From a virus (Duplodnaviria; Heunggongvirae; Uroviricota; Caudoviricetes), in the IMG/VR virus record IMGVR_UViG_2541047885_000010: 7,581 nucleotides of DNA; one strand, given 5' to 3'. The notes under the pieces were generated by a model. That model did not search any database. It saw nothing but the letters and a program-made list of their open reading frames with translations, and had not been told where the DNA came from. The position numbers and the translations under genes were made by a program. Shown here piece by piece: positions 441-7,581 of the stretch (its first letter is position 1; every line of letters begins with the position of its first letter).

Positions 441-869
441 TCACGGTTTAAAATCCAGCACTCCATTGTGAAATACTTTATATACTTCCGGAGACGGCGG
501 AACTGGTATATCAGCATGCTTCACCGCATTCATCGCTTCACGACATAAATCGGGGTCTCCACCTTCTCTTTTAACCTGTAGCAGAAGACCATTCGGGGCC
601 ATATACATTCTCAGTGAACACTCTTTTCCTGAATACTTACTCGCATCCTTTAACTGTTCTTCTATGGCTTTCCTGACCTGAATGGCATACTGCCTGATTT
701 CTTCACTGGCATCAGGGGTACGTTCCGATGAGCTCAAATTTTGCGACTTTATTAATTTATCTGAGTGATACAGAGAAGCATCATAATTATTTGTCGATAC
801 ATCTTTTGTGCAGCCAGTTGTCAGACTGGCTAATATCAAAACAAGAACTGGTACAGCACGGCAATACAT
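441..869 (-). CDS. Lipoprotein with a C-terminal TolA domain III-like domain (prophage cargo)
   Basis: 142-aa ORF with ATG at 869 and GGAG about 10 nt upstream. N-terminus MYCRAVPVLVLILASLTTGC is a hydrophobic signal ending in a lipobox-like TTGC. The C-terminal ~85 aa (...YSGKECSLRMYMAPNGLLLQVKREGGDPDLCREAMNAVKHADIPVPPSPEVYKVFHNGVLDFKP) aligns closely with my recollection of the E. coli TolA C-terminus (...YAGKTCTLRIKLAPDGMLLDIKPEGGDPALCQAALAAAKLAKIPKPPSQAVYEVFKNAPLDFKP). Confidence 0.8.
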   Translation of the reverse strand: MYCRAVPVLVLILASLTTGCTKDVSTNNYDASLYHSDKLIKSQNLSSSERTPDASEEIRQYAIQVRKAIEEQLKDASKYSGKECSLRMYMAPNGLLLQVKREGGDPDLCREAMNAVKHADIPVPPSPEVYKVFHNGVLDFKP

Positions 870-1349: not shown

Positions 1350-1688
1350 TCATCCGTTCTGACTGACTAAATCCTGAACTTCCCGAACCGTCTGCTCAAA
1401 ACGTTCAGTCTCCAGCTCAACGCCTGTAGCACGACGGCCCAGTGCCAGTGCAGCTTTAACTGTTGAACCTGACCCCATAAAAAAATCTGCAACCAGGTCA
1501 CCCGGACGACTGCTTGCGCTGATTATCTGCTGCAGCATTTCTGCCGGTTTTTCGCACGGATGTTTCCCGGGATAGAACTGCACCGGTTTATGCGTCCAGA
1601 CATCGGTATACGGCACCTGCGCCGTCACGCCAAAATACCGCCGCAGTCGGCATTCACAACCACCAGCGCATTTAACGTTCAGGCACAA
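1350..1688 (-). pseudogene. 5'-truncated remnant of a beta-class N4/N6 DNA methyltransferase (C-terminal SAM-binding part only)
   Basis: The ORF has no ATG (the ORF track starts it at a TTG). It contains ...HPCEKPAEMLQQIISASSRPGDLVADFFMGSGSTVKAALALGRRATGVELE..., which is the (Q/E)KP plus FxGSGST SAM-binding motif block of PF01555-type methylases. The DPPY catalytic region expected N-terminal to it is absent, and the upstream sequence is an AT-rich porin promoter region. Confidence 0.6.
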
Positions 1689-1712: not shown

Positions 1713-2138
1713 AAGCTGTGTGACGAAGTAACCACTCTTAACAGCATAACCAATTTTTTACGTACGTAAACTACTAAATGATATTTGTGAGAATGCCACC
1801 GAGTGTTCAAAACACCACCACAAATGCATAAGAAAACTTCAACAAATAACCAGTTAATAATTTCCGATGTTATTTTTAGTTTGTTTAAATTAAGCTAAAG
1901 AATTATAGAGCACTTATAAATAAGTGCCATTAATATAAATTAGCTAATAGATTTATTTTTGTTCAGACAAGAGCCATGAATAGGATTAGATAGAAAAGGT
2001 TCCGATAAAAATAGAGATCTACTTCACAAATTAAATGAGAAACTAAAACTTACATCTTGAAATAATCACATTGATTAGATGAATATTTATCGCGCAGTGA
2101 CATCATTTTTTAATAATAGTTCAAAAAAAGGGCGTACA

Positions 2139-3221
2139 ATGAAAAAATTAACAGTGGCAATTTCTGCTGTAGCTGCATCAGTACTGATGGCGATGTCTGC
2201 TCAGGCAGCTGAAATTTATAATAAAGACAGTAACAAGCTGGATCTATACGGGAAAGTTAATGCCAAGCACTACTTCTCCTCTAATGATGCAGATGATGGT
2301 GATACTACTTATGCTCGTCTTGGCTTCAAAGGTGAAACCCAAATCAACGATCAACTGACTGGTTTCGGTCAGTGGGAATATGACTTCAAAGGCAACCGTG
2401 CTGAATCTCAAGGTTCTTCCAAAGACAAAACCCGTCTTGCATTTGCAGGCCTGAAATTTGGTGATTACGGCTCAATCGATTACGGTCGTAACTACGGTGT
2501 AGCATACGACATCGGTGCGTGGACTGACGTTCTGCCAGAATTCGGTGGTGATACCTGGACCCAGACAGATGTGTTCATGACTGGCCGCACTACTGGTGTT
2601 GCAACTTATCGTAACAACGACTTCTTTGGTCTGGTCGATGGCCTGAACTTTGCTGCTCAGTATCAGGGTAAAAATGACCGCACTGACGTAACTGAAGCCA
2701 ATGGTGATGGTTTCGGTTTCTCCACTACTTATGAGTATGAAGGATTCGGCGTGGGTGCAACCTATGCTAAATCAGATCGCACTGACGGTCAGGTCGCCTA
2801 TGGTAAGAGCAAATTCAATGCCTCCGGCAAAAATGCGGAAGTATGGGCTGCAGGCCTGAAATATGATGCGAACAATATCTATCTGGCTACCACATATTCT
2901 GAAACTCAGAATATGACCGTTTTTGGTAATAACCATATTGCAAACAAAGCACAAAACTTTGAAGCAGTAGCACAATATCAGTTTGACTTCGGTCTGCGCC
3001 CATCTGTTGCTTACCTTCAGTCAAAAGGTAAAGACCTTGGTGTTCATGGTGACCGAGACTTAGTCAAGTATGTCGATGTCGGTGCTACTTACTACTTTAA
3101 TAAAAACATGTCCACTTTTGTTGATTACAAAATCAACTTAATTGACGATAGTAAGTTTACCAAAACAGCTGGTATTGATACCGACGACATCGTCGCTGTA
3201 GGTCTGGTTTATCAGTTCTAA
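2139..3221 (+). CDS. nmpC: Outer-membrane general porin of the OmpC/OmpF family, NmpC / phage PA-2 Lc type (prophage cargo gene)
   Basis: ATG at 2139 preceded by aaggg. Signal peptide [23 protein letters not shown] then [17 protein letters not shown]..., [18 protein letters not shown], and C-terminal ...VAVGLVYQF with terminal Phe. Opposite orientation to Q, as for nmpC relative to quuD in DLP12. The ORF-track start at 2079 adds 20 non-signal residues and is unlikely. Confidence 0.92.
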
Positions 3222-3409: not shown

Positions 3410-3793
3410 TCAATTAGAATTATTAGCAACGATATCCATATCTAACCGGATATCTAATGCCATTAACATCCCTTCAATTATGCCCTCAGCCTTCTGTAAC
3501 CTTTTCCCGATATAACCATCCGAGCAGCAATGCTTACTTGCCAGTGACATGAATGTCATACCACATACATAATAATCTACTAATAAATCGTGTAAATCGC
3601 TGTTGTTCTTTTTCAGACGGGCCATGCACCCGCAAATGATCATCGCGTCATCGTCACAACATTGCGGGCGAGATTTTACTTTTGAAGGAATTAATCCCTT
3701 AAAACCGGCAGCAATGGACGACCAGGTCACATCCTCATGATTATTTGCCGCCCATGCCCCCCAGCGTTCAAGAACCATCTGAATATCACGCAT
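3410..3793 (-). CDS. Late-gene antiterminator Q, phage 82 / QuuD type
   Basis: 127 aa from the ATG at 3793, with GGAG 7 nt upstream. Begins [26 protein letters not shown]... and has Cys-rich motifs (PQCCDD, CGC, HCC). Matches my recollection of the DLP12 QuuD family. The ORF-track start at 3808 is a TTG and less likely. Confidence 0.85.
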
Positions 3794-3810
3794 CAACTTT
3801 CTCCACAAAA

Positions 3811-5785: not shown

Positions 5786-6181
5786 TTACCGAGTTGCTAA
5801 TTTGCAACTCGCTTTTTCGTACTTACTGATAGTGATCTCGACCTTCCCTTCCGGGATAACCGGTCCCCACTCCACCAGCATTCTTTTCACCTGGCTGTCG
5901 TCTTCCCACACACCCGCGTGGGTCAGGGCGTCAAACAGCGCCTTGTTATAGTTGTCCAGATCGCGGATCCGGTTATCCGGAGGAAACAACACGATCTCCA
6001 CTGAAGCAGGTGCCGACGTTGGTTTCGGCAGACGACGTAACTGCTCAACTATTGCTGCACACGCCGCGCTCTGGAATTTTCGCCCCGCCGCGCTTATCAG
6101 GCTCTTACCAGCAAACGCCCCTTTGTTGGGGTGTCGCCAGTACGTGTTCACGCTGGGCGGAAAAGGCAGTATTAGCTTCAT
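5786..6181 (-). CDS. rusA: RusA-family Holliday junction resolvase
   Basis: N-terminal ...LPFPPSVNTYWRH... and DNRIRDLDNYNKALFDALTHAGVWEDDSQV match the RusA family (LPWPPSNNRYYRH..., [28 protein letters not shown]). ATG overlaps the upstream stop as ATGA. About 10 aa longer at the C-terminus than E. coli RusA. Confidence 0.85.
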   Translation of the reverse strand: MKLILPFPPSVNTYWRHPNKGAFAGKSLISAAGRKFQSAACAAIVEQLRRLPKPTSAPASVEIVLFPPDNRIRDLDNYNKALFDALTHAGVWEDDSQVKRMLVEWGPVIPEGKVEITISKYEKASCKLATR

Positions 6182-6504
6182 ACTTTCAGGCCCCTCTCAT
6201 GTAACCAGTGGGCTGCACGCAGCCTTGCGTTTTCCTCACCGGCAAGCAGTGAGCGGATAATCCCGACCGCCTCGCTGTCGTCGTCCTTCACCGCGGTATG
6301 AAGAGTGATACCCCGGGCCACGCCACGCTTTATCGTGATGACACCTTTTTTCTCCAGTGCGCGAAGATGCTCCACCGCTGCATTCACCGAACGGTATCCC
6401 AGCATGGTTGCCACCTCCTGATTGGTTGGCGGGAAGCCACGTTCTTTCTGATAAGAAATCAGCATATCCAGCACCTGCTGCTGGCATTGAGTTAATGTCG
6501 TCAT
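6178..6504 (-). CDS. LexA-like winged-helix DNA-binding-domain protein lacking the S24 peptidase domain
   Basis: 108 aa. MTTLTQCQQQVLDMLISYQKERGFPPTNQEVATMLGYRSVNAAVEHLRALEKKGVITIKRGVARGITL aligns with LexA residues 1-70 ([68 protein letters not shown]), including the recognition helix S-x-NAA-x-EHL. The C-terminal ~35 aa are unrelated to the LexA protease domain. ATGA overlaps at both ends. Confidence 0.75.
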   Translation of the reverse strand: MTTLTQCQQQVLDMLISYQKERGFPPTNQEVATMLGYRSVNAAVEHLRALEKKGVITIKRGVARGITLHTAVKDDDSEAVGIIRSLLAGEENARLRAAHWLHERGLKV

Positions 6505-7153
6505 GCCGCCATCTCCCTGACCAGTTTTTCTGCCTGCTGGCGAACCTGCGCCAGAAAGGCCTCACCACATGCCTCAAGTTCATCGCGCCCGATGTAGCTG
6601 ATTGCCGGTCCCTTCCAGGTCTTGTCGAAAACAGCAATAGCACCAGCGAAGAAAGCGCCTGTCGGCACCTGCTTCTCATCCTTCGGGATAAACCAGGCAG
6701 GCAGTTCAAAACCAATACGCCCGCGAATAAAAGCAATATGATCTGCATCTTCCGGCCACCACACTTGCTGGTGGCAGCTTTGATCAGGAAAACATAGCGC
6801 CCGCCTTTATCACGCATGGCACTGGCATGCTTCATGATGTAACGCATGCCGGTGATGTATTGTCCCTCATGCTGACTGGCGCGGCTGTACGGGGGATTAC
6901 CAAAGGCAGCACCTTTAAGCTCCGCAAGACGTTCTGACCAGTCATGTGCCAGCGCGTTGTCTTCCGCCGTGTAATACGCGGCACATTTGGCGTTATCACC
7001 GTCAGTAAACAGATCCAGAACAAACGGGCCAAACAGGGTGTTAATTCCCCAGAAAATGTTGTCCGGCGTGCGCCACTGATCGCCCACTTCCTTCAGTTCA
7101 TGGGCTGGTTTGTTCCGTAGTTCCACCAGCGCCTGGCAATATTTATTACTCAT
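6501..7153 (-). pseudogene. Phage Dam-family DNA N6-adenine methyltransferase, interrupted by a frameshift at about 6760-6763
   Basis: N-terminal frame from ATG 7153 gives MSNKYCQALVELRNKPAHELKEVGDQWRTPDNIFWGINTLFGPFVLDLFTDGDNAKCAAYYTAEDNALAHDWSERLAELKGAAFGNPPYS...GGRYVFLIKAATSK (NPPY catalytic motif), then becomes low-complexity nonsense. A second frame resumes with WWPEDADHIAFIRGRIGFELPAWFIP... and ends at 6501 in an ATGA overlap with the next gene. Joining the two frames at K|WW reproduces the family motif as I recall it (...ARTDTRWWHD...RFIRGRLKF). Confidence 0.75.
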
Positions 7154-7503
7154 TAAGCCCCCACGTAATTCCCTGAGAGGTACCACTCTTCACCTGATGC
7201 AGCCCGCTTACTGCTTTTCCGTAAACACCGTTCACGACGCGCCAGAAAATTGTTTCGTTCTGGCTGGGAGTGGCTTTCACGGAATGCCGCCATCCACACC
7301 GTTGCAGCACGACGGTATAAGCCCCTGGACTCCAGTTCTTCCGCCTGGCGGGTCAGGCACAAAATCACCCGGGGATCGTTAGTGCCGACATAGAAATTGC
7401 GCACAGGTATGGTTTCAAGAACAGGTTGCAGTTTCTCCTCCTGCGATATCTCAGCCTGGTGTGGGAAATGTCTGCGTGTTTTCCCTTCACAACAGTGAGC
7501 CAC
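7153..7503 (-). CDS. PerC-family (Pch-like) transcriptional regulator, 5' end uncertain
   Basis: Contains ...LTRQAEELESRGLYRRAATVWMAAFRESHSQPERNNFLARRERCL..., resembling the PerC/Pch signature (LE-x-GLWRRAA-x-W ... RR-x-CL). Stop TAA overlaps the Dam ATG as TAATG. The only in-window start is a GTG at 7503 with no clear ribosome-binding site, and the frame stays open to position 7581. Confidence 0.45.
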   Translation of the reverse strand: MAHCCEGKTRRHFPHQAEISQEEKLQPVLETIPVRNFYVGTNDPRVILCLTRQAEELESRGLYRRAATVWMAAFRESHSQPERNNFLARRERCLRKSSKRAASGEEWYLSGNYVGA

Positions 7504-7581
7504 ACGGCCACTCTGACGTAACTTGCTTGCTGACTGCAGAACGCGCTGCCGTGAGTAACCTGCAAAAGCATCCGCAATGTC

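Follow-up and report, generated by a model that had tools for sequence, protein, structure and literature searches.

Towards the end of a 7,581-nucleotide stretch of DNA from a virus of the class Caudoviricetes (hereafter, the window), a reading frame on the minus strand runs off the edge of the sequence, and its translation contains the motif AEELESRGLYRRAATVW...RRERCL. The first-pass annotation took this frame for a PerC/Pch-like regulator, with which the prophage might influence virulence genes or other genes of its host. The locus raises the question of whether the gene is indeed a Pch and, if it is not, what kind of protein carries a PerC-like signature at this position. The basic description was confirmed: the frame contains 142 uninterrupted codons between the window edge at 7581 and a TAA at 7155-7153, and the LE-x-GLYRRAA-x-W...RR-x-CL signature that had suggested PerC is present in its translation. 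The gene to which the frame belongs can be summarized as follows.

7153 to 7581, minus strand: yfdN-type gene, the 3′ 87% (codons 21-162 of 162, plus the TAA at 7155-7153), recognized from its translation and its identity with YfdN and the protein P0001.

The start of the gene was at first placed either beyond the window or at a GTG at 7503, on the understanding that the frame has no ATG within the window. There is, in fact, an in-frame ATG at 7293-7291. It encodes the methionine of TVWMAAF, and because it lies deep within the conserved PerC-core module described below, it cannot be the start codon. The GTG at 7503-7501 is likewise ruled out, as it encodes Val47 in the wing of the winged-helix domain and the ATG of the homologues' MS[LI] start is found further upstream. 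What stood of the original proposal is that the gene begins outside the window. Three genomes that match the entire 7.6-kb window at 99.6% identity contain the complete gene, and in one of them (locus L001) an ATG is located 60 nt past the window edge, behind a Shine-Dalgarno-like AGGGGG run. The RefSeq start for this copy is a GTG located 66 nt past the edge, two codons before the ATG, which gives an annotated length of 495 nt. However, because homologues down to 25% identity all start with MS[LI], we concluded that the true start is the ATG 60 nt past the edge and that the protein has 162 residues, with codons 1-20 falling beyond position 7581. The sequence past the edge is expected to read ...CAGGGGGTGA(G/T)CATGAGT.., contributing 20 further codons, MS[LI][LM]NDVQKFIEAHPGCTSG.

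The 142-residue fragment is 99% identical to the 162-amino acid protein P0001, and the 162-codon reading frame is intact in 84 of 85 close loci. We rejected the idea that the frame is a fragment of a larger fused protein, since 162 amino acids is the standard form in those 84 loci. Rare fusions do occur (P0008, P0077, and P0039, with HTH_36 or XRE N-termini, together with fusions to Dam or RusA), but these are singletons or small clusters and look like deletions in decaying prophages.

All residues of the protein that are present in the window are covered by an alignment with YfdN of E. coli K-12 (b2357, encoded by the cryptic prophage CPS-53), in which 128 of 142 positions are identical (90%; E 2e-95). 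The two proteins differ solely in their middle part (residues about 50-80), in the linker or just before it, so that the K-12 protein differs from the window copy by its linker allele only, apart from the fact that the window copy is cut by the edge. In contrast, the fragment shares 19 of 50 residues with PchA and 17 of 46 with EPEC PerC (37-38% over 46-50 residues). Because a 90% match over 142 residues has to be set against such short matches, we conclude that the gene is an orthologue of yfdN and not of a pch gene, and the Pch relationship suggested by the first-pass annotation was abandoned. It is a known and annotated entity, namely, yfdN in K-12, “PerC family transcriptional regulator” in RefSeq, phrog_1324 in PHROGs, orf40 in SfV, and Sb43 in ST64B. 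YfdN of K-12, SfV orf40, and ST64B Sb43 are of the same length class (162-164 amino acids). The neighbors of yfdN in K-12 are also alike, with the truncated initiator gene yfdO upstream and the methyltransferase gene yfdM downstream, whilst SfV orf40 and ST64B Sb43 occupy the same operon position as the gene in the window.

The gene is widespread. Of 5,426 complete E. coli genomes searched by megablast with positions 6900-7581, 2,668 (K-12 included) had a match, and in 2,007 of these at least 80% of the query was covered. The matches are annotated as “PerC family transcriptional regulator” followed by “phage N-6-adenine-methyltransferase”, although some RefSeq records in near-identical genomes use the name yfdN. 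The gene is also found in Shigella phages SfV, SfII, and SfIV and in Salmonella phage ST64B. A scan of genome contigs with peptide patterns, which were narrow, recovered three loci only. At the level of protein families, 1.84 billion representative proteins were searched exhaustively and yielded only 96 relatives, among which the two-domain layout persists down to 27% identity. In PHROGs, P0001 matches phrog_1324 (“transcriptional activator”) over residues 1-161 (E 3e-75); PchA belongs to a separate family, phrog_994.

To describe the layout of the protein, we used an AlphaFold2 model built on full-length P0001 (99% identical to the fragment) with 20 homologues. The parts that fall within the window, all on the minus strand, are the following.

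7462 to 7581, minus strand: predicted N-terminal winged helix, residues 21-60 (helix 2, recognition helix 3, and the β-hairpin wing), based on AlphaFold2, Foldseek, and PHROGs.
7375 to 7461, minus strand: disordered, variable linker, residues 61-89, based on pLDDT below 50 at residues 66-85 and on column variation.
7198 to 7374, minus strand: three-helix PerC-core module, residues 90-148, with the pattern A..LE..GLYRRAA..W...R..C.
7156 to 7197, minus strand: C-terminal tail, residues 149-162, ending in L[AS]G[NR][YF]VG, conserved in sequence but floppy and of low model confidence.

Helix 1 of the winged helix falls beyond the window edge. In the P0001 model, the N-terminal elements are helices at residues 3-13, 19-25, and 31-44 and strands at 47-52 and 55-60, with pLDDT values of 83-92. 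This arrangement of three helices and a β-hairpin wing corresponds, as modeled, to the winged helix-turn-helix topology, and Foldseek superposed it on ArsR/SmtB, MarR, MecI, and Fur structures at 1.5-2.4 Å over 57-67 residues. Weak support at the sequence level came from the MarR-family phrog_1687, which matches residues 4-58 (E 6.6e-5); the region has no match in Pfam. Judging from the model, we infer that YfdN-type proteins probably bind DNA through this domain. The NPG turn of the winged helix is invariant in the family, whereas the recognition helix varies. An additional upstream domain, which the first-pass annotation had allowed for, is thus accounted for by the winged helix.

The helices of the PerC-core module span residues 90-105, 109-122, and 126-148 (pLDDT 90-94), and their fold resembles that of TPR repeats, a typical protein-binding scaffold. 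Residues A100, L103, R111, A112, R136, and C139 are invariant in the core across the relatives. In the tail, G157 is invariant, and the consensus LAGRF.G is still seen in relatives with as little as 25% identity. Among 84 close relatives, variable columns make up 16 of the 29 in the linker, as compared with 11 of 60 and 11 of 59 in the two folded domains; the linker allele of the window is the second commonest in this set. Taking identity and architecture together, we are close to certain that the gene is a truncated yfdN whose product consists of a winged helix, a linker, a PerC-like module, and a tail. We are aware of no discussion of this architecture, or of the position of the gene described below, in the literature that we searched.

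The relationship to PerC itself is genuine. The protein scores 36.6 bits against Pfam PF06069 (gathering cutoff 22.6; E 5.6e-9), and when 18 divergent relatives with the two-domain layout were combined in a profile, hhalign aligned it with a PerC/Pch profile over 71 columns at a probability of 99.4% (E 1e-21), so the resemblance to PerC on which the first reading was built was borne out. The core motif A-x2-LE-x-[KR]G-[LF]-Y-RRAA-x2-W ... R-x2-C is present, and in an alignment with PerC, PchA, and PchE the invariant residues are A80, L83, E84, G87, R90, R91, A92, A93, W96, R116, and C119. The three-helix core is likewise homologous to that of PerC (encoded by EPEC plasmid pMAR2) and of PchA, PchB, and PchC (the group 1 Pch proteins of EHEC), with which it shares the pattern A..LE.KG.YRRAA..W...R..C and a Pfam family. 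However, the match covers only positions 5-56 of the 90-position model in the YfdN type, at 37 bits, whereas PerC, PchA, and PchE score 143-153 bits (PchE, 152.8) over positions 1-89/90. The common part is the N-terminal half of PerC, which in the alignment is preceded by ~95 extra residues in the YfdN type, and the C-terminal half of PerC/Pch is absent, so that PF06069 is not covered as a whole domain. The hhalign match therefore makes the homology of the core secure, whilst full-domain membership and a single-domain architecture both fail.

The length comparison likewise spoke against a Pch: PerC and the Pch proteins have 89-104 amino acids in one domain, in contrast to the 162 amino acids of YfdN with its added N-terminal winged helix and linker. 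A further possibility raised in the first-pass annotation, that the frame is the C-terminal part of a larger, unrelated protein, proved half right, in that the protein has two domains, of which the C-terminal one is the PerC-like module. The gene is accordingly best classified within the PerC family but outside Pch, as a two-domain branch of the YfdN type.

A more specific version of the original idea holds that the protein is a Pch/PerC-type prophage activator of ler/LEE1, or of other host virulence genes. In its favor are the genuine PerC homology of the core module and the reports that PerC and PchA-C activate LEE1 (PMC5931665; PMC4764244). In addition, yfdN was deleted, as “the K12 unique PerC homologue”, from a K-12 ler-lacZ reporter strain (PMC5931665), a precaution which implies that others thought interference possible. 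Nevertheless, full-domain coverage, small single-domain size, and a stand-alone cargo position, all features of the Pch-type LEE activators, are lacking from the YfdN type: the protein has no counterpart of the C-terminal half of PerC/Pch, and its gene is placed quite differently. pchA stands alone on the opposite strand in the Sp4 late region, as cargo next to IS elements, and perC closes the perABC operon; yfdN, in contrast, lies inside an early operon. Its nearest relatives reside in hosts without a LEE, such as K-12, the Shigella phages SfV, SfII, and SfIV, and Salmonella phage ST64B, and about half of the complete E. coli genomes have a match.

Nor does membership of the PerC family predict LEE activation. 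Activation of LEE1 is reported for PerC and PchA-C only (PMC5931665; PMC4764244). PchD leaves ler unaffected, whereas PchE affects ler less than two-fold, acts as a repressor of csgD, and increases flagellar expression (PMC5931665; PMC6265319; PMC7369912). The EcCIMP1_025 protein, borne on a phage-inducible chromosomal island (PICI), represses LEE1 (PMC11773190). PchE (90 amino acids, encoded after primase and SSB genes on the P4/PICI-like Sp7), PchD, and the PerC-like proteins of PICIs (EcCIEDL933, EcCICFT073, and EcCIMP1_025) are ~90 amino acids long, have no winged helix, and are PerC-family members encoded in the early or replication part of mobile elements. Orthology of the window gene with pchE or pchD was rejected, pchE encoding a 90-amino acid, full-length PerC-model protein on a P4/PICI-like element. 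Since PchE, PchD, and the PICI proteins do not activate the LEE, “PerC family” is not synonymous with LEE activation, and since members of the family activate, do nothing, or repress, homology predicts little about their targets. With these observations in hand, we regard a role of the window gene in cross-talk with the LEE as extremely unlikely.

The repressing member of the family brings up another candidate, the ANR proteins (Aar of EAEC, and Rnr of EPEC and C. rodentium). These are single-domain anti-activators of less than 10 kDa that act through protein-protein binding and consist of a small three-helix module with a signature similar to the YfdN-type core; the layout of the signature published for ANR proteins matches that of the PerC core (PMC4983702). 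If YfdN were a protein of this kind, its module would bind an AraC-family activator or an H-NS/Ler-type protein and so take it out of action by sequestration or inactivation, with a net negative effect, and the winged helix would serve to localize it. Known binding partners of ANR proteins are AggR, H-NS, and Ler (PMC4983702; PMC10148876), a TPR-like fold is suited to protein binding, and matches to ANR were also noted for the PerC-family protein EcCIMP1_025 by the authors who described it (PMC11773190). Furthermore, EPEC rnr is located in the early region of a Mu-like prophage and yfdN is likewise a phage early gene. The ANR model NF033650 matches the PerC-core module in register, and the same region of the profile is matched by PerC, PchA, and PchE, at 13.6-18.2 bits, and by the F1055 homologue. 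However, the score of the YfdN-type protein, 24.1 bits (E 2.3e-5), is below the curated cutoff of 32, and hhalign against an eight-sequence Rnr alignment, although in register over 50-56 columns, gave a probability of only 5% for the YfdN family and 21% for PerC/Pch. Given also that the YfdN type has two domains, and that co-precipitation of H-NS with PchA is not reported (PMC4764244), we consider an ANR-like function very unlikely.

More can be learned from the genes that surround yfdN. The gene order in the window and in SfV, ST64B, mEp460, and Stx2c phages is cI, cro, ..., a replication initiator, the yfdN-type gene, and an adenine methyltransferase, followed by genes for a LexA-DNA-binding-domain protein, RusA, a KilA-N protein, a DUF968 protein, and Q. 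The window shows the downstream side of this arrangement; the initiator is seen upstream in the 99.6%-identical genomes and in 84 of 85 related loci. The yfdN-type gene begins 2 nt past the initiator stop and, with the RefSeq GTG start, overlaps it. The downstream features are as follows.

7151 to 7155, minus strand: TAATG, the overlap between the stop codon of yfdN and the start codon of the dam-type methyltransferase gene, seen in the sequence.
6501 to 7153, minus strand: phage N6-adenine methyltransferase gene (PF05869) with a 1-nt deletion at about 6766/6767, recognized by alignment to an intact 654-nt homologue, which scores 153.5 bits against Pfam Dam.

The TAATG junction is common to 75 loci in which dam is next and 10 in which the LexA-like gene is next, and a scan of 6700-7581 found no promoter-like or terminator-like site. 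The translational coupling of yfdN to its neighbors on both sides, together with the lack of such sites of its own, led us to conclude that yfdN is an internal gene of the early-right operon. In SfV/ST64B-type lambdoid prophages it represents a conserved, accessory component of this replication/nin-like operon. No match to a defense system was found with PADLOC.

Could the protein control the gene that follows it? Acting as a C-protein-type regulator, it would time or tune the downstream adenine methyltransferase. The overlapping stop and start codons recur with methyltransferases of three Pfam families that occupy this slot, PF05869 (the window, SfV, and ST64B), PF02086 (F1055 and a Salmonella phage-plasmid), and PF05063 (the P0158 locus, adjoining a 32%-identical yfdN-type relative); the SfV record has a dam promoter annotated within the 3′ end of the yfdN-type gene; and a winged helix would be appropriate for such a task. 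On the other hand, the two genes are readily uncoupled. An intact yfdN-type gene has no methyltransferase next to it in 10 of the 85 close loci and at the P0170 locus, which encodes a 28%-identical relative, and in several loci, including the window, a broken dam sits beside an intact yfdN reading frame. Conversely, phage cdtI has dam without yfdN. As the 6700-7581 region contains no promoter-like site and there is no intergenic region in which an operator could lie, we find a controller of the methyltransferase highly improbable.

The upstream neighbor is invariably an initiator gene. Across all contexts seen, in which the yfdN-type proteins range from 28 to 100% identity, the yfdN-type gene comes immediately after it, adjoining or overlapping the initiator stop codon. 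An impression from BLASTP that these initiators are unrelated was rejected by profile comparison, which placed them in a single family (hhalign 98.7%; E 1.7e-16). The DnaD-like domain of the initiator occurs in 224 phage records, as compared with 57 that have a yfdN-type gene. Initiators of this family are also encoded by phages phiP27 and POCJ13. In both, the next gene specifies a DnaC-like loader, which in phiP27 is accompanied by a DnaB-like helicase, whereas yfdN-type operons encode no helicase loader. The order of initiator and loader in phiP27 and POCJ13 implies that the yfdN-type gene occupies the helicase-loader slot of its sister phages.

It is conceivable, then, that the protein is an accessory of replication that works with the DnaD/DnaT-like initiator, for example by recruiting host DnaB-DnaC or by organizing the origin complex, and that it is a functional analogue of λ P or of the DnaC-like loader of the sister phages. 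This reading also gains from pchE, which on Sp7 of the Sakai strain directly follows the primase and SSB genes, and from the frequency of winged helices in initiators and loaders. Yet λ P and the DnaC-like loaders of phiP27 and POCJ13 share with YfdN the slot but neither sequence nor fold: the YfdN type has no ATPase domain, searches of Pfam, PHROGs, and NCBIfam for similarity to a loader (AAA+ ATPase or P family) gave no match, and the only family with which homology could be detected consists of transcription regulators. The slot can equally be described as the first gene of a nin-like region. The conserved C-terminal tail of the initiator, moreover, does not track with the yfdN-type gene; a proposed pairing of this tail, IPxGFRG, with the TPR-like module was rejected, as the tail is present in POCJ13, where the next gene is DnaC-like, and absent at the P0170 locus, where the next gene is of the yfdN type. 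Finally, phage cdtI has the same backbone and keeps the initiator and dam, but has lost 132 of the 162 yfdN codons in a clean, in-frame deletion of 396 nt that leaves 30 codons, which marks the gene as dispensable there, and the prophage is termed inducible in the title of its original report (as cited in PMC4606577). On balance we think a role in replication unlikely to be the answer, but it is a serious rival.

The explanation that we favor overall, and to which we give about an even chance, is that the gene is a truncated yfdN, an accessory gene of the early operon whose product is a regulator or remodeller placed on DNA. The mechanism itself is proposed tentatively, by analogy with Pch, and may well be wrong. 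The protein would be made along with the replication genes upon induction of the prophage or infection, and its winged helix would set it on DNA. The PerC-type module would then act as in Pch, by remodeling or displacing nucleoid-silencing or regulatory proteins locally, for example, complexes of H-NS and StpA, and transcription or DNA transactions of the phage (and, incidentally, of the host) close to the binding sites might thereby be altered. Such a gene would be helpful to the phage but inessential, and would be no dedicated regulator of the LEE.

A precedent for this mechanism comes from Pch proteins: PchA associates with DNA in vivo and lowers the local occupancy of H-NS and StpA, even though an interaction between Pch and H-NS was undetected (PMC4764244). 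Selection for a function is supported by the intact state of the gene in all but one of the 85 loci and by the clustering of variation in the linker, and accessory status by the in-frame deletion in cdtI. Against the remodeller mechanism, the recognition helix varies across the family, and we identified no candidate for an operator; in addition, one family of initiators always precedes the gene, the sister phages have a DnaC-like loader in its slot, and winged helices are common among replication proteins. Given the linkage to the initiator and the occupation of the loader slot, a role in replication fits at least as naturally as remodeling does. Experiments on YfdN, or on any other two-domain member, were not found in the literature, where YfdN appears only in a glycogen screen by overexpression, on a multi-gene fragment causing filamentation, and in a computed interactome cluster.

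A speculative reading that draws on both ideas is that the YfdN type is a PerC module tethered to DNA. The winged helix would anchor the TPR-like adaptor at the replication or early region of the phage, in the slot that a DnaC-like helicase loader fills in sister phages, and the target recruited or displaced there would be a nucleoid or replication protein of the host; the PerC family would then be primarily a replication or early-phase factor of mobile elements, from which PerC and PchA-C were co-opted for virulence as stand-alone derivatives. The location of pchE after the primase and SSB genes of its island is the comparison made here. We hold this broader reading to be quite unlikely.

The yfdN-type gene is an ordinary and very common gene that is already annotated, and its significance lies elsewhere. 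First, it is a caution that the label “PerC family” on a prophage gene does not denote a regulator of the LEE. Second, the presence of a yfdN-type gene in the slot of the loader raises the question of how these phages load their helicase. Third, K-12 itself encodes a protein in which a predicted winged helix is joined to a PerC-type module, and this offers a simple system for learning what the partners of the PerC module are. If the module does turn out to be tethered to DNA in the way outlined above, YfdN would offer the most tractable route to the biochemical mechanism of PerC and the Pch proteins.

The gene directly 3′ of yfdN, the PerC-family prophage gene, overlaps it through a short stop/start junction, and three features are located in this part of the window:
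7151-7155, TAATG stop/start overlap 3′ of yfdN, also seen in the related loci L010-L089
6501-7153, minus strand, dam-type N6-adenine methyltransferase gene directly 3′ of yfdN, with a lesion at ~6766/6767
6178-6504, minus strand, LexA-DNA-binding-domain protein of 108 aa (PF01726)

The TAATG junction is retained in the 75 loci where dam comes after yfdN and in the 10 where the LexA-like gene does. Entire genes appear to be exchanged or lost at this junction precisely from start codon to start codon. The phage cdtI (L093, 3501-3600) carries a yfdN with a clean in-frame deletion of 396 nt, which leaves a mini-ORF of 30 codons that has kept both its place after the stop codon of the upstream initiator gene and the stop/start overlap with dam. 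Rare proteins in which the yfdN body is fused to the initiator's HTH_36 N-terminus, an XRE HTH, Dam or RusA (P0008, P0077, P0039, P0036/37, and P0047/48/53) look like products of deletion in decaying prophages; the two parts of P0077 meet within the wing of its winged helix.

Within one DnaD/DnaT-like initiator family, the next gene is a DnaC-like loader in phiP27 (L097), which has a DnaB-like helicase gene besides, and in POCJ13 (L098); in the near-identical genome L001 and in L006, a yfdN-type gene comes next and the loader is absent. The last 10 residues of the initiators from L001, L006, L091, L095, and L098 contain a conserved [IL]P.{1,3}GFR[GQ] motif, despite an overall identity of only ~20% among the proteins that have it, and the DNA encoding this motif also provides the Shine-Dalgarno-like run of the following gene. 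The distribution of the motif does not match that of yfdN.

In the window, the dam gene is split into two ORF pieces, as 1 nt is missing at ~6766/6767 (CCAGC-AAGTG, where an unbroken homologue of 654 nt has CCAGCGAAGTG). Either the gene is a pseudogene or the missing nucleotide reflects a sequencing error; truncated dam genes also occur in 5 of the 85 related loci. The 108-aa protein consists of the LexA DNA-binding domain alone (69 bits, scored on a homologue), without the peptidase domain, and could be a competitor of LexA at SOS boxes. It is found again 3′ of yfdN-type genes, including relatives that are only 28-32% identical.

Elsewhere, the window also holds the following genes:
3410-3808, minus strand, Q antiterminator gene
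2079-3221, plus strand, OmpC-like porin gene (380 aa), opposite in strand to Q and just past it
1350-1688, minus strand, site-specific DNA methyltransferase remnant that lacks the N-terminus and whose counterpart in the near-identical genome is labeled "partial"
1148-1224 and 1234-1309, both minus strand, two phage-borne tRNA genes
441-869, minus strand, ORF of 142 aa whose product carries a lipoprotein-type signal (…LASLTTGC)

The site just beyond Q, on the opposite strand, is a typical position for lysogenic conversion genes. The tRNA pair comprises tRNA-Arg(TCG) and a tRNA with a CAT anticodon, which is called Met by ARAGORN, but tRNA-Ile by RefSeq in the near-identical genome. The annotation of that genome names the 142-aa ORF "cell envelope integrity protein TolA", and a prophage TolA-like lipoprotein might interfere with Tol-dependent entry of phage or colicin.

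The NCBIfam model for the ANR anti-regulators (cutoff, 32 bits) gave in-register matches of 13.6-24 bits, below the cutoff, to PerC (L005, 18487-18756), PchA (L004, 33365-33679), PchE (L003, 31772-32044), and the full-length YfdN-type protein P0001, and in all PerC-type proteins tested the matches cover the same region. Similar ANR matches have been remarked upon (PMC11773190). Such in-register, sub-threshold matches suggest, but do not prove, that PerC and ANR have a three-helix module in common. The ANR gene of EPEC, rnr (L094, E. coli E2348/69, 2501-2734), is one of the early-region genes of a Mu-like prophage, which run in the order Mu transposase, AAA ATPase, DUF3164, and rnr; this small regulator is therefore phage early-region cargo as well.
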